Below are positions 16,719 through 57,789 of a DNA stretch of 57,978 nt, piece after piece. Numbering within the stretch: the stretch's first letter is position 1; each line of letters starts with the position of its first letter. Both the position numbers and the translations under genes were made by a program. The stretch comes from Candidatus Woesearchaeota archaeon. Lineage in GTDB: Archaea; Nanobdellota; Nanobdellia; Woesearchaeales; ARS49. The stretch lies in the NCBI GenBank assembly GCA_014729555.1, contig WJJT01000021.1, positions 1 to 57,978 on the forward strand. The letters run 5' to 3'. The notes below the pieces were generated by a model. It saw only the letters and a list, made by a program, of their open reading frames with translations. It was not told the DNA's origin and did no database searches.

Positions 16719-16817
16719 GACATATACTTTAAAAGCATAGTATTTAAACTTTATCACAAAACATAAATATGAGTTCTTTATTATGTGTTTTATATTCGGC
16801 TAATAAGGGGGATATTT

Positions 16818-18056
16818 ATGAAGAAGAGTAAAAAGCACACCAAAAATAAAGAAGAGTATTATAAGTTGGACAAGAAAACAATGGGCTATGCCTTGCTTGG
16901 CTTGATTGTTGTGTTGATAATTGCAGGGCTTTTCTATTATGATGTCATAGAATTGCCTGAATCAAAAGAGGGAAAAAAAGAAAAGAAAATTCTGGATAAT
17001 TTCACAGTTCCTGTTGGTGCTCCTGAAGTAGAGCTTTATGTGATTGAGAACTCTGACTGCAGGGAATGCATTAATGCCTCTCAGGTTATTGAGATTATAA
17101 AGGGTGCTCCCACTCTTGATGTAACGTCTGATAAGATTATTGAGTATGACTCTGACGAGGGCAAAGACCTTATTGAGGAGTATGAGCTCAAGAGGCTGCC
17201 TGCTTTTGTTCTGAAGATTACTTCAGAAGAGAAGCTTGAAGAGGCTGTCCCTCCTTTTGAAAAAAGGAATGGTGATATGGTTTATGATATGACTCCCCCG
17301 CCTTATTACGATGTTAAGGAGGGCGAGATAAAAGGCGTCATATCTGTCATTAAGCTTGTGAATCCTGGCTGTGAGGACTGCTTTGATCTTGATGCACTGA
17401 TGAAAAACCTTAAGATGTTTGGCCTGGCGATTAGTGAGGAAAAGACTGTTGAATATGATAGTGAGGAGGGAGAGGATCTTGTTGAAAAGTATGAGATAAC
17501 AAAGGTTCCTACTTTGATATTTTCCAGTGATGCTGCAGAGTATGATCAGATCAGCGGCGCCTGGGCTGATATTGGCTCTACAGAGGATGACGGCAGGATG
17601 GTGTTGAGGACAGTTAACCCGCCTTACTATGATCTTGAGACAAGTTCTGTTAAGGGTGTTGTTTCAATCACTCACCTGACTGATGAAAGCTGTGACAAAT
17701 GCTTTGATACAAGCATGATCAAGGACATGTTTGAGAATCAGCTTATGATGCAGTATGGAATTGAAAAGACTGTTGATGTGTCCAGTGAAGAGGGCAAGGA
17801 TATTCTTGAGAAGTATGGCATAACAAAGGTTCCTACAGTTGTCCTGTCAAGTGATGCAGGTGAATATCCTGGGGTCGCAAATGTATGGGACCAGATAGGC
17901 GTTGTTATGGATGGTGAGCATGTCATTACAAAGCTTGAGACTATTCCTGGCGTTGTTTACAAGAATCTGGAAACAGGCGAGATAATCGGCCTTGAGGAAG
18001 AGAATTCAGGAGAGGATTCTGAAGAAGAAACCAGTGATGGCAATGAGACTGCCTGA
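16818..18056 (+). CDS. signal-anchored protein with three tandem thioredoxin-fold CxxC domains
   Basis: TM anchor MGYALLGLIVVLIIAGLFYY. Three repeats of about 100 aa each have a CxxC (CREC, CEDC, CDKC) and a conserved E(K/E)YxI(T/K)(K/R)(V/L)P(T/A) strand (EEYELKRLPAFVL, EKYEITKVPTLIF, EKYGITKVPTVVL). GGGGGAT SD lies upstream of the ATG at 16818. Confidence 0.75.
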   Translation: MKKSKKHTKNKEEYYKLDKKTMGYALLGLIVVLIIAGLFYYDVIELPESKEGKKEKKILDNFTVPVGAPEVELYVIENSDCRECINASQVIEIIKGAPTLDVTSDKIIEYDSDEGKDLIEEYELKRLPAFVLKITSEEKLEEAVPPFEKRNGDMVYDMTPPPYYDVKEGEIKGVISVIKLVNPGCEDCFDLDALMKNLKMFGLAISEEKTVEYDSEEGEDLVEKYEITKVPTLIFSSDAAEYDQISGAWADIGSTEDDGRMVLRTVNPPYYDLETSSVKGVVSITHLTDESCDKCFDTSMIKDMFENQLMMQYGIEKTVDVSSEEGKDILEKYGITKVPTVVLSSDAGEYPGVANVWDQIGVVMDGEHVITKLETIPGVVYKNLETGEIIGLEEENSGEDSEEETSDGNETA

Positions 18057-18123: not shown

Positions 18124-19068
18124 ATGATATGCATAATTGCTTTGGCGGTATTCAGTATTCTGGCAGTATTTTCTGCTAGCTACCGCCCTCTTGCAGCCGA
18201 GGCTTTTGACTGTGTTTTCAGAAAGGCTACTTTCAGGAAGTGCAGGACTAATCTTGACCAGAGATTAAAGAGCCAGATCACCGGAAAATTGCTTACCAAA
18301 AGCCCGGGGCTTGCAAGATTTGTTTACAAGCGATTTGAGATTCTGTCCTGGATTTTTGTTATTTTGTTCATAGCCAGCCTGGCTTACACTGTTTATGGTG
18401 GCTATAATTATGCATTGTATGGCAATTGTTATGGTCCTGAGGATAATGGTGGTTTTTGTATATACAATGCCCTGGAAGGAGAGCAGTTCTCTAAGATTCA
18501 TGCAGAGCTTGAGGGAGAGACTGTTCTGCCGACTGCAGATGATGACCCTGCTATGGGTCCTGATGACGCCAAGGTTGAGATGATTGAGTTTGGTTGTTAT
18601 ATGTGTCCTTTTAGCAGGGAGGCGCAGGAGGTTGTAAAGCAGGTTCTTGAAAAGTATGGTGACAGGATTAAGTTTGTTTACAGGGATTTTCCTATTGAGC
18701 AGAGCGGCCACTCTGATTTGCACATGGCTTCTAATTGTGCGAATGAGCAGGGAAAGTTTTGGGAGATTCATGATTTATTGTTTACAGAGCAGGAGGTTTG
18801 TGCCCAGACAACTGGAGAGGAAAGAGAAAAGCAGGTTCAGGATATTGCAGAGCAGGCCGGCCTGGATATGGCTGAGTTCAATGCATGTATGAAATCTGAG
18901 AAATATGAAGATGAAATTGATAAAGATTTTCAGGATGGCTTGAAAGCAGGCGTGTATGGCACTCCAACATTCTTTATCAATGGAAGGACTATCATTGGAC
19001 CGAAACCTTTAAGAGCTTTTGAAAAAATCATTGATGAAGAGCTGGAGAAAGCTGAAAATGGGTCTTAA
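18124..19068 (+). CDS. membrane-anchored DsbA-like thiol:disulfide oxidoreductase with novel two-TM Cys-pair N-domain
   Basis: C-terminal DsbA-type domain (EFGCYMCPFSREA, FWEIHDLLF, VYGTPTFFINGR). The N-terminal part has two TM helices, C30-x9-C40 in the basic loop and C102-x9-C112 after TM2. Confidence 0.75.
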   Translation: MICIIALAVFSILAVFSASYRPLAAEAFDCVFRKATFRKCRTNLDQRLKSQITGKLLTKSPGLARFVYKRFEILSWIFVILFIASLAYTVYGGYNYALYGNCYGPEDNGGFCIYNALEGEQFSKIHAELEGETVLPTADDDPAMGPDDAKVEMIEFGCYMCPFSREAQEVVKQVLEKYGDRIKFVYRDFPIEQSGHSDLHMASNCANEQGKFWEIHDLLFTEQEVCAQTTGEEREKQVQDIAEQAGLDMAEFNACMKSEKYEDEIDKDFQDGLKAGVYGTPTFFINGRTIIGPKPLRAFEKIIDEELEKAENGS

Positions 19069-31180: not shown

Positions 31181-31600
31181 ATGCATTTTTCAAAAATCAT
31201 GAGGCTGCTTGCACTCCTTATTTCATTGTTATTTCTTGTAGGCTGTTCAATGCCTGAGATTGAGTCAAGTTATGGTAAAAAAGAATGCTATGATAATGTA
31301 AGGCAAAGCATAACCAGTGAGTTTAAGCAGGATGTATCAAAATTGAATTTTAAAAGAATTCGGTGTGAATCCGTGGGGCGGAGATCGCGGTTTGAGGCAG
31401 AGGGAACAACAGATGGAAAACAGTTTTATGTCTTGCGAGACGCTCAAGGAGGCAGTCCTGGCGGCGGTGGCTGGCTAAGCAGATGCATGGTTGTAGAAGG
31501 TAAAAAAATAATTTCATACTCCAAGCAAGAAGGATTTGCTCATGAAGACCCGCCATACCAGCCAAGGATTTCTAATGAAACTAGATGTGTGTGGGAATAG
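31181..31600 (+). CDS. putative lipoprotein (hypothetical)
   Basis: Signal with lipobox LLALLISLLFLVGCSMPE. 139 aa. Confidence 0.55.
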   Translation: MHFSKIMRLLALLISLLFLVGCSMPEIESSYGKKECYDNVRQSITSEFKQDVSKLNFKRIRCESVGRRSRFEAEGTTDGKQFYVLRDAQGGSPGGGGWLSRCMVVEGKKIISYSKQEGFAHEDPPYQPRISNETRCVWE

Positions 31601-32620: not shown

Positions 32621-33295
32621 CTATTTCTCAATCCCGTCCCAGCTTCCGTGCAGATGTTTTGGAACCATTGAAGTGTCAGCATATATTTTGAATCCTGCGT
32701 TAATCACATCTAAAGAAAACATCATGTCATCAAAGCCTTCTTCATATCTGAACTCAACCTTCTCAAGGACATCTTTGTGAATAAGCACGCAGCTAAAAGA
32801 ACAAGCTTTCAATTCAACTAATTGTTCTTTCTCCAGCTCTTGTTTTGGCAGATACCATAGCCCTGTCGGATCTACTGGATGCTCTACATATGCCATTGGC
32901 ATTAGTTCTATTTTATTGCCTACTGGCAGATTATTGTAAACTATTCCTGATACTATTTTCTTGTCATGCCTTACTAGTTTCTGTATAATATCTGGTTCTG
33001 GAATCACGTCCTGCTCTAAACTCAGGAAATAATCATAATCATTCTCCAGGGCATATTTTCTTATTTTGTTTCTGCTTTGCTTTATTCTCTCTCTTGCACT
33101 GTCATGCCACTCATTTCGAAAGACTTTAAATCCTAGTGCTTCTATCATTTTTGAATACCCGCTTTCTTTGGAATTATCAACAATGAGAACATCAAAATTA
33201 TCATAAGTTAGTTTCTTGAGTGCCTCTGCATACTCTTTCAAGCAGTATTTTTTCCCGTCCCATGTCGGACACCCTACTAATACTTTTGGTTTCAT
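32621..33295 (-). CDS. glycosyltransferase-like protein (putative)
   Basis: N-terminal beta-alpha pattern VLVGCPTWDGKKYCLKEYAEALKKLTYDNFDVLIVDNS resembles GT-A/GT2-like enzymes. No firm DxD assignment. Confidence 0.4.
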   Translation of the reverse strand: MKPKVLVGCPTWDGKKYCLKEYAEALKKLTYDNFDVLIVDNSKESGYSKMIEALGFKVFRNEWHDSARERIKQSRNKIRKYALENDYDYFLSLEQDVIPEPDIIQKLVRHDKKIVSGIVYNNLPVGNKIELMPMAYVEHPVDPTGLWYLPKQELEKEQLVELKACSFSCVLIHKDVLEKVEFRYEEGFDDMMFSLDVINAGFKIYADTSMVPKHLHGSWDGIEK

Positions 33296-33705
33296 ATGTT
33301 TAGCTTGACCTCTTCTCCTATTTGAATGTTGTGTTTTTCTGAAAATCCTGAATTTATTTCAAGCACGTATTTTGCCTCTGCTTTTGGTATATAATTTTTG
33401 CAGGGTTCTTTTTCACACGGTTCTGCAGTTAGGATATCAACTATTGTATTTTCTGAATTGATGAATACCATATCTAGAGGAATTAATGTATTTTTCATCC
33501 AGAAACCGTGTTTTCTTTCTTCGTCAAAGACAAAAAGCATTCCATCATTCTCCCCTAAATGCTCTCTGTGCATAAGTCCTCTTGCCATCTCTGCAGGTGT
33601 TTCAGGCACTTCTACAGACACTTTTGTATCACCTATTTCAACACAAGGCCTGGAAGTGCAGGCAATTAAAGCAAAGAGTAATGGTATTAAGATTGTTTTT
33701 TTCAT
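33292..33705 (-). CDS. DUF192 domain protein, lipoprotein-type signal
   Basis: LLFALIACTS lipobox. MLFVFDEERKHGFWMKNTLIPLDMVFI is the DUF192 core. Confidence 0.75.
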   Translation of the reverse strand: MKKTILIPLLFALIACTSRPCVEIGDTKVSVEVPETPAEMARGLMHREHLGENDGMLFVFDEERKHGFWMKNTLIPLDMVFINSENTIVDILTAEPCEKEPCKNYIPKAEAKYVLEINSGFSEKHNIQIGEEVKLNI

Positions 33706-38693: not shown

Positions 38694-39269
38694 TTAGTAT
38701 ATTTTTGGAATTATTTTTTTGGTTTTTTCCATGTAAGCAAGGTATTCTTTTCCAAATTCTTTTATCAATATTCCCTCTTCTGCGCTTATCCTGTAAAGCA
38801 GCGCAGGGATATAAAAGACTATCAGTGCAAGCACTCCGTAAAAAGAGGAAAACGCTATTGCCAGTCCAAAGAATATGAGCAGCATTCCAAGATACATTGG
38901 GTGCCTTATGTGTTTGTAGAGCCCTTTTTTGACTAGCTTGTGGTCTTTTTGCACGACCACCTCAAAGCTGAAGAATCTGTCAAGTTCTTTTCTTGCGTAT
39001 ATTCTTATCAAGCCTCCTATGAATATCAATAGCACCCCTACATAACTGTATATTGTTGTTGCAGGCCTTAGCTTGATGAATTCTCCGGCAATTATGCCTA
39101 TGCACAGCGTGTTGACAACAATCATCATCCAGAATGATTCTCTTTCTTTTATTTTCACTTTGTGCACTTTTACTATTCCTGTTTTAAATATGTCTTTGGA
39201 TAATAATAAGAATGTGATTACCCATAATGCTACAAATACTCCTATCAGCAGGTAGACAACATCAATCAT
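38694..39269 (-). CDS. isoprenylcysteine carboxyl methyltransferase (ICMT)/phospholipid methyltransferase family protein
   Basis: Five TM helices. GLYKHIRHPMYLGMLL and EEGILIKEFGKEY. Confidence 0.8.
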   Translation of the reverse strand: MIDVVYLLIGVFVALWVITFLLLSKDIFKTGIVKVHKVKIKERESFWMMIVVNTLCIGIIAGEFIKLRPATTIYSYVGVLLIFIGGLIRIYARKELDRFFSFEVVVQKDHKLVKKGLYKHIRHPMYLGMLLIFFGLAIAFSSFYGVLALIVFYIPALLYRISAEEGILIKEFGKEYLAYMEKTKKIIPKIY

Positions 39270-53767: not shown

Positions 53768-54154
53768 CTATATGATATCTTTAATATGTGCTGTTGATAT
53801 TGGGCAGCACTTTTGGCCTATGTAGTATCTTGGGTATTTTACTTCTATGCATCCTGGTTTGAATTCACTCATTCTTGCTAATGCATACCCTTTTGGGCAT
53901 GGCTCATACCCTAGTACATCGCTGTACGGCTGCCTTCCTTTTCTTTCTATTTTTGTTGATATTACGCCTTCTGGTGTGATGCCTGCTCCATAAAACCTGT
54001 CTACTGGCGCGTTTTGTGCTTTTTCAGCATCCACATACACTTTTTCAACTGAGTGGATTATTGATCCTGTGTTTTTCATCTGGAATAATAAAAGAAGTCC
54101 GATTATTGCGATAATTGCCACAATGCCTAGCATCACTAATGAAAAAGATTTCAT
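53768..54154 (-). CDS. signal-anchored small Cys protein, paralog 4 of array
   Basis: MKSFSLVMLGIVAIIAIIGLLLLFQMKNTGS... with C-terminal CPKGY...PGC...QKCCPIS. Confidence 0.65.
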   Translation of the reverse strand: MKSFSLVMLGIVAIIAIIGLLLLFQMKNTGSIIHSVEKVYVDAEKAQNAPVDRFYGAGITPEGVISTKIERKGRQPYSDVLGYEPCPKGYALARMSEFKPGCIEVKYPRYYIGQKCCPISTAHIKDII

Positions 54155-54188
54155 TCATTTCACCAAATTAGATAAAAAAAATAAAATT

Positions 54189-54584
54189 TTACTGCGGGAT
54201 TATCTGGCAGGCAGTATCTCCAATCCAGTAGTCTATTTGTTCTGGCCTGCTGGCTTGCCTGTTTGGATAGCAGGGTGAAGTGAATACGCTTGTTGACCTT
54301 GTTATTGTTGGCTTTACCTGCATTACTGCTGAGCCCGTGTCATAATATCCTGCGTAATATACTGGCTGTTCATATGTTTCTGGCACGCCTGTTACCCAGC
54401 TTCCGTATACTTCCTGCCATCTGTCTGTCTTTGCTCCTGAGTAGGATTTAGACACTCCATATGCAGTAGAGGATATGCTGTAGGCTCCGCTCATTGCTCC
54501 TTTGAACAGCAAGATCAATCCCACTATTGCAATCACTGCAACAATTCCTAATATTACCAGTGAAAGATGCCTCTTTTGATCCAT
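54189..54584 (-). CDS. signal-anchored small Cys protein, paralog 3 of array
   Basis: MDQKRHLSLVILGIVAVIAIVGLILLFKGAMSGA... The anchor is nearly identical to paralog 4. Y/G/S-rich middle region and two C-terminal Cys. Confidence 0.65.
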   Translation of the reverse strand: MDQKRHLSLVILGIVAVIAIVGLILLFKGAMSGAYSISSTAYGVSKSYSGAKTDRWQEVYGSWVTGVPETYEQPVYYAGYYDTGSAVMQVKPTITRSTSVFTSPCYPNRQASRPEQIDYWIGDTACQIIPQ

Positions 54585-54644
54585 TTTTTTTATTCACCTC
54601 TTGATTTATTATTTATTTTTATTTGATTACATAAATGTTTGTTC

Positions 54645-55262
54645 TTAGTATGTTGCCCGTAGTCCTGATTTAAAACAGCACCACGTGTCATCTGCGCCCC
54701 ATATTAAATCTCTGTTTTGTATTGCTGATCTCACCATTACTGTTAATGTCTGTCCAGCGGCAGTTTGGATTTGCTGTCCTGATTGATAGCATTCCAGGGT
54801 TCTAAGGCTGTGTTTAAGTTGTTCTGTTCCTGCAGCATACTGCATGCCTAACTGGCCGCTTCTTACAGGCTGATTGTAAACATAACAACCGCGTTCATTT
54901 TCATTAAGCCGCTTCCAAGACCTTTTTTTGTCCTGATAAGACGTTGTTCCTGCTATTCCTAGGTTGCCTGTTGCTTGACCTTCTCGCGTATATGCTTGGC
55001 CCCCTTCAACTTGTGCTCCGGTCTCTTCAATTATATTTGCCTGTGTCTCGCCTTGCTGGACTATGCCCCCGTAAATAGCTCTTCCGCCTGAAGCTGCTTT
55101 CCAGTATTTTCCTGGATCTCCTCCTGGTGTTTCTGCTGCTTCTCTTGTTTGTTTATATATTGAAACAGCTCCTGTATTTGCATCTGTCATCATCATCACA
55201 AATCCTACCATGCCTACTACAAACACGACTGTTAAGACAATGAATGGTGTTTTTTCACTCAT
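54645..55262 (-). CDS. signal-anchored small Cys protein, paralog 2 of array (longer, G/Q/T-rich)
   Basis: MSEKTPFIVLTVVFVVGMVGFVMMMTDANTGAV... with C-terminal GCYVYN, LECYQSG and WCCFKSG. Confidence 0.65.
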   Translation of the reverse strand: MSEKTPFIVLTVVFVVGMVGFVMMMTDANTGAVSIYKQTREAAETPGGDPGKYWKAASGGRAIYGGIVQQGETQANIIEETGAQVEGGQAYTREGQATGNLGIAGTTSYQDKKRSWKRLNENERGCYVYNQPVRSGQLGMQYAAGTEQLKHSLRTLECYQSGQQIQTAAGQTLTVMVRSAIQNRDLIWGADDTWCCFKSGLRATY

Positions 55263-55273
55263 CTTTTTTCACC

Positions 55274-55663
55274 TCATATACCTACACAGCAATACTTGTC
55301 TGTGTATACATCTTCTACACTGAAATATGGATAGCATTTGTTTAAGTCATTTATTTCATCCATGCTTATGTACGTTGGAACATCTGTTAAGTCATATAGC
55401 TCTCCCTGAATTGATAACACAAAGCAGGATTTTCTTGGTTTTACTCCTGCTATTGCAGAGCCCCATGCTCCAAAGACACCTTTTTCTTTTTTTGCTGCCT
55501 CTATTGCTTCTGGTGTTGCTATAGCCCTGCCGTACATAGGAGATTTTGCAACCATCCCTGTTGTTCCAGTATTGTATAGCATAACCATTCCGACTACTGC
55601 CAGAACAGATACTATTGCTAGAAGTGTCATAGGAAAATTTTTCTCAAAGTCCATTATTTTCAC
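55274..55663 (-). CDS. signal-anchored small Cys protein, paralog 1 of array
   Basis: ...PMTLLAIVSVLAVVGMVMLYNTGTTGMVA... with C-terminal SCF..., NKCYPYF and KYCCVGI. Confidence 0.65.
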   Translation of the reverse strand: MKIMDFEKNFPMTLLAIVSVLAVVGMVMLYNTGTTGMVAKSPMYGRAIATPEAIEAAKKEKGVFGAWGSAIAGVKPRKSCFVLSIQGELYDLTDVPTYISMDEINDLNKCYPYFSVEDVYTDKYCCVGI

Positions 55664-55722
55664 CTCAGTTTTTTACTTGATAAGAGAATAATATTAGTTT
55701 GTGTATATAAATCTTTTGCTAT

Positions 55723-56160
55723 TTAAGTAAAAAAAAACATGCCTGCAGCCACTGCTAAAAACACCACTATATTTAGTATTATCTCTTTCTTATTTTTCAT
55801 CAATGAGCCTGCCGGAAGCCCGTAAAGAAAAATAACTCCGCTTATTAATAAGAAACTGCCAGTTAGTGAAGCTAGATACATTCCCAATCCCAGGATCACA
55901 GAGATAAAATATGTTGGTATTTTCTTGGACCAGCTTAAATAAACAAAGATTATCAAGGCTCCTGTCCAGGTGTAGTGAACATTTGTTCTGTTGAAATGCA
56001 TCACTAAAAAAACAGTTAGGCAAAACAAGAATTTCTGCAGTATCAGGAAATATTTCTTTCCTGGCTTTATTTCCTCCTTTGCAATCCTGGCAAGCGCTCT
56101 TCCTGATACTAAACCAAGTGCAGCAACAACAGCAGCCAGCACATAATTTATGACTTCCAT
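55723..56160 (-). CDS. four-TM membrane protein (hypothetical)
   Basis: 145-aa ORF with four hydrophobic helices. Its start overlaps the stop of the Dph2 N-domain gene by 13 nt. Confidence 0.6.
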   Translation of the reverse strand: MEVINYVLAAVVAALGLVSGRALARIAKEEIKPGKKYFLILQKFLFCLTVFLVMHFNRTNVHYTWTGALIIFVYLSWSKKIPTYFISVILGLGMYLASLTGSFLLISGVIFLYGLPAGSLMKNKKEIILNIVVFLAVAAGMFFFT

Positions 56161-56402
56161 TCAGAATGCCCCCATTGTATCAATAAGTCAACTCCTAAAT
56201 CCTCTGCTTGTTTTGGAATGTCACAAGCACCATAACAAGAGCCAAGCCATATTATTACCTCTGCGCGTGTTTTTTCTTTCAGTTCTTTTGCAATCTTTTC
56301 AGCCTCTGGCTTCAGGCCATCAGGAAGCTGCACACAAACACGTTTAGCTTTTGTCTTTTTTATCTCTTCACAAGCCTTCTCTAATTCTAAGTCATATTCC
56401 AT
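56148..56402 (-). CDS. dph2: diphthamide synthase Dph2, N-terminal domain only (split gene, part 1)
   Basis: MEYDLELEKACEEIKKTKAKRVCVQLPDGLKPEAEKIAKELKEKTRAEVIIWLGSCYGACDIPKQAEDLGVDLLIQWGHS matches Dph2 domain 1, including the CYGACD cluster-ligand region. It ends where the 33702-34316 product begins to align. Start set at the ATG at 56402. Confidence 0.75.
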   Translation of the reverse strand: MEYDLELEKACEEIKKTKAKRVCVQLPDGLKPEAEKIAKELKEKTRAEVIIWLGSCYGACDIPKQAEDLGVDLLIQWGHSEWKS

Positions 56403-56498
56403 AGAACGAACAATATCTGATGATTTTAAAAAACTATTGATAATCCGAGCATTAGCGAGGACTAGCTGCACAAAGTGCCCTTTCTATTTTTAGAAAAC

Positions 56499-56530: not shown

Positions 56531-56618
56531 GCCCCTGTAGCTTAGTGGTAGAGCGTGCGGCTGTTAAACTCAATTTTTAGAAACCGCAAGGTCGCAGGTT
56601 CAAATCCTGCCGGGGGCG
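56531..56618 (+). tRNA. tRNA-Asn(GUU) with 16-nt intron at 37/38
   Basis: Manual fold. Acceptor GCCCCTG/CGGGGGC. D arm GCTT-AGTGGTA-GAGC. Anticodon stem TGCGG/CCGCA with loop CTGTTAA interrupted by 16 nt (about 56567-56582). T arm GCAGG-TTCAAAT-CCTGC. Discriminator G. T-run after the 3' end. Confidence 0.85.
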
Positions 56619-56640: not shown

Positions 56641-57789
56641 TTATTTCTTTTTAGGCAAAGTATATTCATTAGTGAAATAATCCTGCATTCTCTCTGTCAA
56701 GCCGCTGCTGGCTTCTGCTCTGCAGCTTGCCACTGCACTGCAGAAAGCATTTGCATCAGAAACGCCGTGTCCTTTTTTCAGTATGGCGCTTCTGTATTGT
56801 GCACGTGATCTCAGGCCGTGAAGTGTTGCAGCGCCATAGCCTTCAAAAGCAAAAAGTTTTATCAGCCTGCTTATCACATTTCTGGGAATATTTTCTACTT
56901 TTTTCATAATCGCGCCCATTTCCGGCTGGGGTTTAATCTTCCCTTGCTCGACTGCAATTTGATAATCCAGGACTATATCTTTAACAGTGTCTGAAATGAA
57001 ATGTTTTGTATAACCTAAGATCGTCTCTGCTTTTGCCTCTATTGCCTTTAGTATAAGGTTTCCTGTGTGTCCGTCAATCACTACTGCATGAGCCTTGCTT
57101 AGTTCTGCATCTCTTGGCTCTGCTCTGCTTACATTTATTGTTTCTATTCCTGCAGCTTCGCAAAGCTCCATTGTTCTTCTGACTAATTTGTTTCCTTTGT
57201 ATACTTCTGAGCCGACTGTTAATATGCCTATTTTTGGATCTGTGATTCCTTCTCTTTCATCCAGGACTATTCTTGCGATTTGGGCAAATTGATACAAGTG
57301 GTGTGCTCTGCAAACCATGTTTGCGCCTATGTCTAAGTAAAGCACTTTATCTGCTGCATCTCTTACCTTGATGAATTCTGCGAGAGGCAGCTGGTCTACG
57401 TTAGGCATTGCAAAATCATGCAGTTTTCCGGCGATGTGCTGTATTATTTTGGTTGTGTCGCCTATTGTCAATCCGCCGTCAAAATCTTGTCCAATGCCGT
57501 CTACGAGTTTGTTCAAAGAACTGCAGGATAGGTTATGCGAATCAAAATAAGTTTCTGCTGGTTCGATATGCACCGGGACTTTAACATCCAGTTCGTCTAA
57601 TTCTCTTTTAATATCATCTTCATGGCCAATAAGAACAAGTTCGCTGTTTTTTTGTTCATTAAGTGCTTTTACTGCACCTTTTACTGCTCTTTCAACAACT
57701 GGCTGTTCTCTTCGCTTTCCATCCAAGCCCACTACATACTGGTCTCCCCCCAGGGTATCAACAGCGATTATTGTTTGGTATTCACTCAT
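56641..57789 (-). CDS. plsX: PlsX-family (phosphate acyltransferase-like) protein, divergent
   Basis: IAVDTLGGD, YLDIGANMVCRAHHLYQFA, PKIGILTVGSEVYKGN, VVIDGHTGNLILKAIEA and YGAATLHGL...KKGHGVSD line up with PlsX motifs. An insertion follows GGD, and the central AGNTGA region is diverged. Confidence 0.7.
   Translation of the reverse strand: MSEYQTIIAVDTLGGDQYVVGLDGKRREQPVVERAVKGAVKALNEQKNSELVLIGHEDDIKRELDELDVKVPVHIEPAETYFDSHNLSCSSLNKLVDGIGQDFDGGLTIGDTTKIIQHIAGKLHDFAMPNVDQLPLAEFIKVRDAADKVLYLDIGANMVCRAHHLYQFAQIARIVLDEREGITDPKIGILTVGSEVYKGNKLVRRTMELCEAAGIETINVSRAEPRDAELSKAHAVVIDGHTGNLILKAIEAKAETILGYTKHFISDTVKDIVLDYQIAVEQGKIKPQPEMGAIMKKVENIPRNVISRLIKLFAFEGYGAATLHGLRSRAQYRSAILKKGHGVSDANAFCSAVASCRAEASSGLTERMQDYFTNEYTLPKKK

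Follow-up and report, generated by a model that had tools for sequence, protein, structure and literature searches.

What kind of protein is encoded by four small genes that stand one behind the other in a woesearchaeal genome, and where would such proteins act? The genes lie on contig WJJT01000021.1 of Candidatus Woesearchaeota archaeon (assembly GCA_014729555.1), and "the window" refers to the whole 57,978-nucleotide stretch analyzed. Judged from sequence comparison, the four proteins belong to an unannotated and apparently new family centered on Woesearchaeota/Nanoarchaeia, which is closest to the archaeal class III signal proteins with a shared H-domain. They are tentatively regarded here as exported proteins that keep a class-III-like helix as an anchor and sequence-specific association module and carry an unglycosylated, disulfide-locked knob on a flexible stalk.

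The array consists of four co-directional minus-strand open reading frames (ORFs) that span 53768-55654 after one start correction and are separated by intergenic gaps of 34, 60, and 11 nucleotides (nt). The genes and the expression signals upstream of gene 1 are as follows.

55274-55654, minus strand: gene 1 (P129), 126 amino acids (aa) from the ATG at 55654; 129 aa from the GTG at 55663 in the ORF listing
54645-55262, minus strand: gene 2 (P205), 205 aa
54189-54584, minus strand: gene 3 (P131), 131 aa, the most conserved of the four
53768-54154, minus strand: gene 4 (P128), 128 aa
55660-55666, minus strand: GAGGTGA ribosome-binding motif of gene 1, read in the upstream sequence
55704-55711, minus strand: TATA-like box TTTATATA, read from the sequence, about 50 nt upstream of the gene 1 ATG

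The true start of gene 1 is the ATG at 55654 (MDFEKN...) and not the GTG at 55663, because the GTG lies inside the GAGGTGA Shine-Dalgarno motif and all orthologues start at the ATG. This is the sole correction to the four minus-strand ORFs as first described; their coordinates, helices, NTG/SGA motifs, and cysteine numbers (4, 2, 4, and 4 from P128 to P129, with CC in three of the four) all stand. Genes 2 and 3 likewise have GAGGTGA before their ATG, and gene 4 has a shorter GGTGA. The TTTATATA box is preceded by an A-rich stretch resembling a B recognition element, and the two together are probably the array's own, putative promoter. The initial annotation placed the array between gpmI and dph2N, which is incomplete: its direct flanks are a DUF2284 gene and a gene for a 145-aa membrane protein.

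All four proteins have the architecture originally claimed for them: one N-terminal helix is followed by a motif of small residues, a spacer rich in Y and G, and a Cys/CC end. The hydrophobic helix is 19-21 residues long and begins at residue 4-9. P129 starts with MDFEKN followed by FPMTLLAIVSVLAVVGMVMLY and NTGTTG, has cysteines at 80, 110, 125, and 126 (129-aa ORF numbering), and ends in KYCCVGI. P205 starts with MSEKT followed by PFIVLTVVFVVGMVGFVMMM and TDANTGA, and its long G/Q/T-rich spacer leads to cysteines at 126, 158, 194, and 195 (TWCCFKSG). P131 starts with MDQKRH followed by LSLVILGIVAVIAIVGLILLF and KGAMSGA and has only two cysteines (105 and 126), with AC in place of CC. P128 starts with MKS followed by FSLVMLGIVAIIAIIGLLLLF and QMKNTGS and has cysteines at 86, 102, 116, and 117 (QKCCPIS).

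The leader is what unites the four. A hidden Markov model (HMM) of the leader, run against the ORFs of the 58-kb window, matches only these proteins (E-values of 2.5e-15 for P128, 2.5e-20 for P131, 2.4e-14 for P205, and 3.3e-17 for P129). The helices of P128 and P131 (LVMLGIVAIIAIIGLLLLF and LVILGIVAVIAIVGLILLF) are identical at 15 of 19 residues, yet only 6 of these 15 residues use the same codon; the helix is therefore kept by selection on the protein, and gene conversion as the source of the identity is ruled out. With full-length proteins, most BLASTP pairs are significant (E 2e-10 to 2e-4) over the first 35-60 residues only. Once leaders are removed, BLASTP finds nothing significant among the four (E > 0.06), and hhalign comparison of the four orthologue-group profiles yields probabilities below 6%, with YYIGxxCC/YWIGxxAC as the sole common segment. 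Nor do the window ectodomains score better than 337 decoy ORFs against an HMM built from the C-terminal domain of the wider family. The description of the four as paralogous thus applies to their first 35-60 residues and not to their ectodomains, which have a plan in common, in which a [K/R]-x-Y-G motif leads through a spacer of low complexity to a C..C..[aromatic]CC end.

Each gene has its own orthologue group in metagenomes and in Candidatus Woesearchaeota metagenome-assembled genomes (MAGs), and every cysteine is invariant within its group. Related genomes keep the gene order: a Dph2 N-terminal fragment, a 146-aa membrane protein, and genes of 127, 204, 131, and 122 aa, while DUF2284 is read from the other strand. 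Comparison with the orthologous locus L001 (L001:8929-10799; loci are given as L numbers) gives a dN/dS of 0.13 for P129, 0.23 for P205, 0.11 for P131, and 0.27 for P128, compared with 0.08-0.14 for enolase, Prs, PlsX, and DUF2284. P131 is 92% identical to its L001 orthologue, above enolase at 84%. These values are those of purifying selection, and the word "diversifying" in the initial annotation does not survive them. Exact-match look-ups of P0001 and P0033 returned no contigs.

The leader is also the slower-evolving part at the protein level, with dN below that of the mature part in all four genes; the difference is clear for P205 and P131 and marginal for P129 and P128. In a signal peptide that is cleaved off, the opposite is usual, and it changes faster than the protein it precedes. 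At synonymous sites, too, the leader codons of every one of the four genes have diverged less from L001 than the remaining codons, most clearly in P131 (0.23 versus 0.55), P128 (0.34 versus 1.05), and P205 (0.57 versus 1.79); this may reflect a nucleotide-level or translation-initiation constraint.

One explanation would make the four chance, non-functional ORFs, an artefact of AT-rich DNA with a generic hydrophobic helix. Non-significant ectodomain similarity and the lack of any database family match are what such ORFs would show. This explanation is nevertheless refuted by orthologues standing in the same order in several genomes, dN/dS values of 0.11-0.27, cysteines invariant within groups, a ribosome-binding motif for each gene, and a leader HMM that reaches E-values of 1e-20 with no other match in the window, and it retains a vanishingly small probability.

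Beyond this contig, the leader defines a large family. A full HMMER scan of 1.84 billion cluster representatives recovered at least 523 clusters at 50% identity (E ≤ 1e-3), and when each species was represented by a single genome, 32 assemblies yielded 50 loci with 177 leader genes. The loci are mostly labeled Woesearchaeota or Nanoarchaeia, with one Aenigmatarchaeota and about a dozen "uncultured Methanosarcinales", which are taken to be mislabels. Arrays of 2-12 genes are typical and a genome can hold several loci; the family is usually tandem, though 25 of 60 gene groups are single genes. L005 holds an 11-gene array, the L007 array occupies the same syntenic position beside iPGM-Prs-enolase, and arrays in L036 and L037 hold recognizable P131 and P128 homologues. 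No family member matches Pfam or NCBIfam, and long members carry no known domain fused to the leader, which agrees with the earlier statement that the four are unassignable to any family. Viral contigs in IMG/VR hold no relatives, which rules out a viral origin on that ground, and literature searches found no description of the family.

The family profile, K/R-x-[IVL]-[AS]-L-x-I-L-G-I-V-A-x-I-A-x-V-G-L-x-L-L-F ... [TS]-G, is matched by all four proteins. Its leader is best described from 361 distinct sequences, with positions -2 and -1 counted back from the helix and percentages written after the residue in the helix line.

Position -2: K 70%, R 17% (K/R 87%)
Position -1: G 54%, N 12%, S 11%, K 6%, A 2% (G/S/A 67%; others, N/K/E/H/Q, 33%)
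Helix: [IV]-A-L-[AV]-I-L95-G85-I-V87-A86-V-I-A90-[IV]-V-G95-L90-V-L-L-F86
After the helix: [TKS]-G-A-x-[TS]-G-[AG]

The helix is thus a near-invariant, 21-residue hydrophobic stretch, [IV]AL[AV]ILGIVAVIAIVGLVLLF, followed by small residues (T/S/G/A at +4 in 75%, G at +5 in 51%, A/G at +6 in 51%). The [TS]-G sits 27-28 residues past the putative class III cleavage site, a spacing that probably matches that of the conserved NT(S/A)G in archaellins.

This leader resembles a prepilin signal, for which the published rule is a charged residue at -2, G/A/S at -1, and a cleavage site before the H-domain (PMC4371748). It is possible, though doubtful, that the four are genuine pilin-like subunits of the type IV kind: their n-region would be trimmed by a class III signal peptidase, their helices would be packed into the core of a thin filament by a PilB/PilC-type machine whose genes lie elsewhere, and the array would supply major and minor subunits that carry different disulfide-locked knobs. 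Family-wide, K/R at -2 (87%) and, at -1, G (54%), S (11%), or A (2%) fit the rule, as does the K-S of P128 itself. The helix starts directly after the site and is conserved like pilin H-domains, and tandem arrays with conservation confined to the N-terminus are typical of pilin sets. The genes may also lie away from their machinery, as the pilA1-6 genes of Haloferax do (PMC4371748), and DPANN archaea have been reported to have type IV filament systems (bioRxiv 10.64898/2026.04.22.720090).

Position -1 is where the four depart from the pilin rule. A charged residue stands at -2 in each of them (K-S in P128, R-H in P131, K-T in P205, K-N in P129), but only the S of P128 is permissive at -1; the H, T, and N of the other three break the G/A/S rule. 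About one third of the family has N/K/E/H/Q there, and permissive and non-permissive residues coexist in single arrays and orthologue groups. The residue varies even among orthologues (S/N/H/K in one group, H/N in another) while the remaining leader is nearly fixed; therefore, -1 is not a constrained cleavage residue in this lineage. Deeper homologues do have K-G, namely a P131 relative (L036:13270-13674, KKG/LAL) and a P129 relative (QKG/LPL), which suggests that an ancestral K-G was later relaxed and that the leader of the four may be a derived form of a class-III-like leader. The earlier remark that the K/R-G class III context is absent is accordingly right for the four, but the picture is incomplete without the wider family, where this context is common. 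Since -1 is S, H, T, or N rather than G, the four probably remain membrane-anchored and are neither cleaved by prepilin peptidase nor extruded into a filament.

Other searches also speak against pilins. Neither the four nor their K-G-type relatives match curated pilin/archaellin N-terminal models (at E ≤ 1-10) or solved pilins; such models include Pfam Class_IIIsignal and Pilin_N and NCBIfam arch_flag_Nterm. Against PDB sequences, the leader profile yields only PsbJ-type noise (E ≥ 0.04). No secretion-ATPase Walker A motif occurs in the window or among the approximately 892 genes of the 50 loci, a scan at the level of loci, and no T2SSE, T2SSF, or A24 domain occurs among the sampled array neighbors, although pilin genes may sit far from their machinery. 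An AlphaFold2 (AF2) model of P128 shows no pilin head domain packed on the helix, and the mature parts avoid glycosylation sequons about 16-fold, whereas characterized archaeal pilins mostly carry 3-7 (PMC4371748).

The conserved small residues after the helix bring a different cut into view. The leader could be an export signal cleaved at [TS]-G-[A/G], 5-7 residues past the helix, by signal peptidase I or by a neighboring signal peptidase II, releasing soluble, unglycosylated, disulfide-rich peptides that would serve as effectors, antimicrobials, or signals directed at host or competitor cells. This explanation, which we consider unlikely, would account for the motif at +4 to +6 and for the many members of only 50-90 aa with Cys-rich tails. 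A large adhesin of the same genomes has TITG/Q after its helix, the window encodes an S49 signal-peptide peptidase, and sequon avoidance is compatible with small knotted peptides. Against it, the hydrophobic stretch, at 21 residues, is as long as a membrane span. The ordinary Sec signals of these genomes differ, with 11-13 hydrophobic residues and AxA (MTIKKLLLVLIVLLILNAFSASA/Q), and so do their lipoprotein signals (LLLIAS/C). The h-region is 19-21 residues rather than short, and there is no consistent pair of small residues at -3/-1; K/R/M are common at -3 and Q/E/K at -1. The leader is more conserved than the mature part at the protein level, which is unusual for a discarded signal, and conservation runs past the motif into a K-x-Y-G-G segment.

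Signal peptidase II enters the discussion through its gene. An lspA gene co-directional with the array lies upstream of it in 23 of the 50 loci, which represent 23 of the 32 assemblies, and in about 13 loci it immediately precedes the first array gene. These proteins match Pfam Peptidase_A8 (E 1e-33) and the NCBIfam lspA equivalog TIGR00077 (82-118 bits, cutoff 73.95) and have both catalytic Asp motifs. A metagenome scan started from LspA returned mostly bacterial LspA, and 2 of 80 loci were of the Woesearchaeota type, both with an array directly downstream. Around the window's own array, no lspA is found within 58 kb. The genes concerned, including small proteins with a canonical lipobox, are as follows.

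L012:8904-9347, L016:8916-9386, and L033:9460-9915, with 20 further loci, all outside the window: lspA
Window 31181-31600, plus strand: small protein with lipobox ..LLFLVG/C..
Window 33292-33705, minus strand: small protein with lipobox ..LFALIA/C..
L012:7478-8482: lipobox protein in a related genome

The array proteins lack a lipobox Cys, with none within at least 50 residues past the helix in the four and none there in the family logo, and are hence not canonical signal peptidase II substrates. The organism of the window probably makes lipobox lipoproteins, and with such proteins in these genomes and in the window, signal peptidase II has ordinary substrates that account for the enzyme. The adjacency of lspA and the arrays may be plain inherited synteny, because glycogen synthase, Prs, and enolase are likewise conserved array neighbors. 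A 2025 study stated that no archaeal Lsp homologue had been identified (PMC12462473), and the bona fide lspA genes and lipobox proteins in Woesearchaeota/Nanoarchaeia MAGs contrast with that statement.

A bolder proposal combines these observations into a new export and maturation route, in which the class-III-like helix would work independently of prepilin peptidase, LspA would cut at [TS]-G as a lipid-independent, Cys-less "lipobox", and the episymbiont would use batteries of unglycosylated, disulfide-knotted peptides on the surface of its host. It is judged improbable.

The mature parts themselves point to the cell exterior. Across the mature parts of 207 members, the cysteines number exactly four in 105; the count is even in 162, odd in only 7, and zero in 38, so that 162 of 169 Cys-containing members have an even count. 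The window also encodes adjacent membrane-associated thiol-disulfide oxidoreductases.

16785-18056, plus strand: thioredoxin-like protein
18124-19068, plus strand: DsbA-like protein (Thioredoxin_4 E 6e-29, DSBA E 3e-21, N-terminal membrane region)

This pair is a plausible oxidizing system for exported Cys-rich proteins. In P0023, an orthologue of P205, one Cys of the CC and the Cys of an LEC motif are lost together and a new Cys is gained nearby, which hints at which residues pair.

N-glycosylation sequons (N-x-S/T) give a second signature of the family. In 357 mature regions, 10 sequons are observed against 165 ± 12 expected from shuffling, about 16-fold fewer, and a single atypical protein of 398 aa accounts for 5 of the 10. 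No such depletion affects the reverse motif, and 701 other genes of the same loci have 932 sequons against 820 expected. Large surface proteins with Sec signals beside the arrays are enriched about 2.5-fold (31 versus 12, 69 versus 25, and 83 versus 36). The four and 35 orthologues have none, although for the four alone this absence does not reach significance (P = 0.26). The sequon-enriched giant proteins of the surface that adjoin arrays (beta-helix/NosD, DUF11/Big_9) are located as follows.

L052:12731-16750
L005:13456-19023
L033:12548-15565
L049:9781-12504

Sequon depletion alongside enriched neighboring surface proteins is interpreted to mean that the mature parts come within reach of the oligosaccharyltransferase, are hence located outside the membrane, and would be under selection to stay unglycosylated. 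The even cysteine counts, the depletion, and the DsbA-like gene in the window all favor the initial annotation's view of surface-exposed, disulfide-bonded proteins.

The AF2 model of P128 (predicted local distance difference test score, pLDDT, 60) has a helix at 2-27, a low-confidence spacer at 27-80, and a compact C-terminal domain at 81-120 with a pLDDT of 75-83; that of P205 is uninformative (pLDDT 40). Foldseek found no structural match in the PDB (best E 2). The C-terminus of the P129 group is always CaaX-like (CCVGI, CCVI, CCRI), and the window encodes a membrane protein of the PEMT/ICMT family (isoprenylcysteine carboxyl methyltransferase-like) at 38694-39269 on the minus strand. This is probably a coincidence, because the Cys domain appears to be extracytoplasmic.

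An anchored surface-display protein, the tentatively favored interpretation, would be built from three parts. The first would be a class III (prepilin-type)-like module with a short n-region ending in K/R, a 21-residue helix, and a [TS]-G turn that follows the start of the helix by about 27 residues. The second would be a G/A/P/Y-rich spacer that is probably flexible, and the third a small C-terminal knob with two disulfides in a C..C..[aromatic]CC framework. Insertion would be Sec-dependent, with the N-terminus inside and the C-terminus outside, and the conserved helix would stay attached as the membrane anchor. Its sequence may also provide a surface for specific association, be it of family members with one another or with a single partner common to all. 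A DsbA-type system would oxidize the knob outside the cell, where it would be displayed on its stalk without N-glycans. One array would then encode a constant set of knobs that differ from one another but are each conserved across species, which would suit specific contact with a partner cell or surface; a role in cell-cell contact is conceivable on these grounds.

Several points weigh against surface display of anchored proteins. Homology among the ectodomains of the four is not demonstrable, and AF2 models the spacer with low confidence and fails on P205. The analysis of flanking charges (positive-inside rule) leaves the topology unfixed, with a mean charge difference of +0.26. Many family members have merely 15-50 residues after the leader and resemble secreted peptides more than stalked surface proteins. 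The conserved [TS]-G and the recurrent lspA adjacency hint at a processing step that an anchor would not need. G/S/A at -1 in 67% of the family is what cleavage calls for, and cleavage with filament assembly may be the ancestral and possibly still the current mode.

The lifestyle assumed for Woesearchaeota and other DPANN archaea is one of attachment to other cells, and the molecules of their contact surfaces are almost undescribed. The family offers concrete candidates for roles in surface recognition or as effectors, being abundant (several arrays per genome, of up to 12 genes), lineage-centered, conserved, and, as interpreted here, exported, disulfide-bonded, and glycan-free. Its near-invariant helix also offers a test of whether pilin-type H-domains can serve as assembly modules without prepilin processing.

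Several features lie next to the array or to its relatives. The 145-aa multi-pass protein was considered as a part of the system or a hidden peptidase and rejected: it has no Asp and no Pfam match, and its distant homologues are not beside arrays. The ORF that overlaps it matches only the first 56 positions of the Dph2 (diphthamide synthase) model, is kept as an ORF of 80-84 aa in L001 and L008, and may be a split or remnant Dph2. The length of the neighboring tRNA-Asn suggests an archaeal intron.

55723-56160: 145-aa multi-pass membrane protein
56148-56471, minus strand: short ORF with the Dph2 fragment
56531-56618, plus strand: tRNA-Asn (GTT), 88 nt, longer than a standard tRNA
56641-57789, minus strand: PlsX-like gene (bacterial-type phosphate acyltransferase, FA_synthesis) in an archaeal genome

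At L025, a single leader-family gene has a DHH/DHHA1 phosphoesterase on one side and a GGDEF diguanylate cyclase on the other (E 9e-44 for the cyclase; the pair at L025:8840-9997 and L025:10569-11555). ORFs of the same size occupy the same positions in L022, L030, L031, L038, and L042; the domain scan covered L025 only. To our knowledge, cyclic di-GMP enzymes are unusual in archaea.

Four known systems invite comparison. Bacterial LspA-processed lipoproteins share with the family the recurrent lspA gene, here upstream of the arrays, and the F-[TS]-G-A after the helix resembles positions -3 to -1 of a lipobox; unlike lipoproteins, the family has no Cys at +1, and the window array has no nearby lspA.

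Conotoxins and amphibian antimicrobial peptide precursors join a conserved signal to divergent small Cys-framework domains, including vicinal CC, and have expanded by tandem duplication. The likeness to such toxin and defensin superfamilies is the conserved leader joined to a variable Cys-rich part. Those superfamilies are eukaryotic, with short cleaved signals and positive selection, whereas the archaeal family has a helix of membrane-span length and is under purifying selection.

Bacterial minor-pilin and pseudopilin operons (fimU-pilVWXE, gspGHIJK, comGC-GG) likewise have 3-5 consecutive small genes with a similar N-terminal helix and a divergent globular part, and a C-terminal disulfide is common in bacterial type IVa pilins. 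They differ in their invariant G at -1, their E at +5, and their position in or near machinery operons, none of which is seen here, and the comparison of the leader profile with PDB sequences detected no similarity to them.

Archaeal class III proteins and type IV pilins (PilA1-PilA6 of Haloferax volcanii, EpdA-E of Methanococcus) come closest. Position -1 sets the family apart from them: it is S/H/T/N in the four and something other than G/A/S in one third of all members. The family also has a two-disulfide C..C..CC knob, an lspA neighborhood, no assembly genes seen in 50 loci, and no match to a pilin or archaellin model, and it avoids the sequons of which tabulated pilins mostly carry several (PMC4371748). 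What the two have in common is a short, charged n-region that ends in K/R and, family-wide, usually continues with G, and a helix that follows directly and is conserved among paralogs while the C-terminal parts differ. Both also comprise several paralogous genes per genome that are often clustered and not necessarily beside assembly genes.

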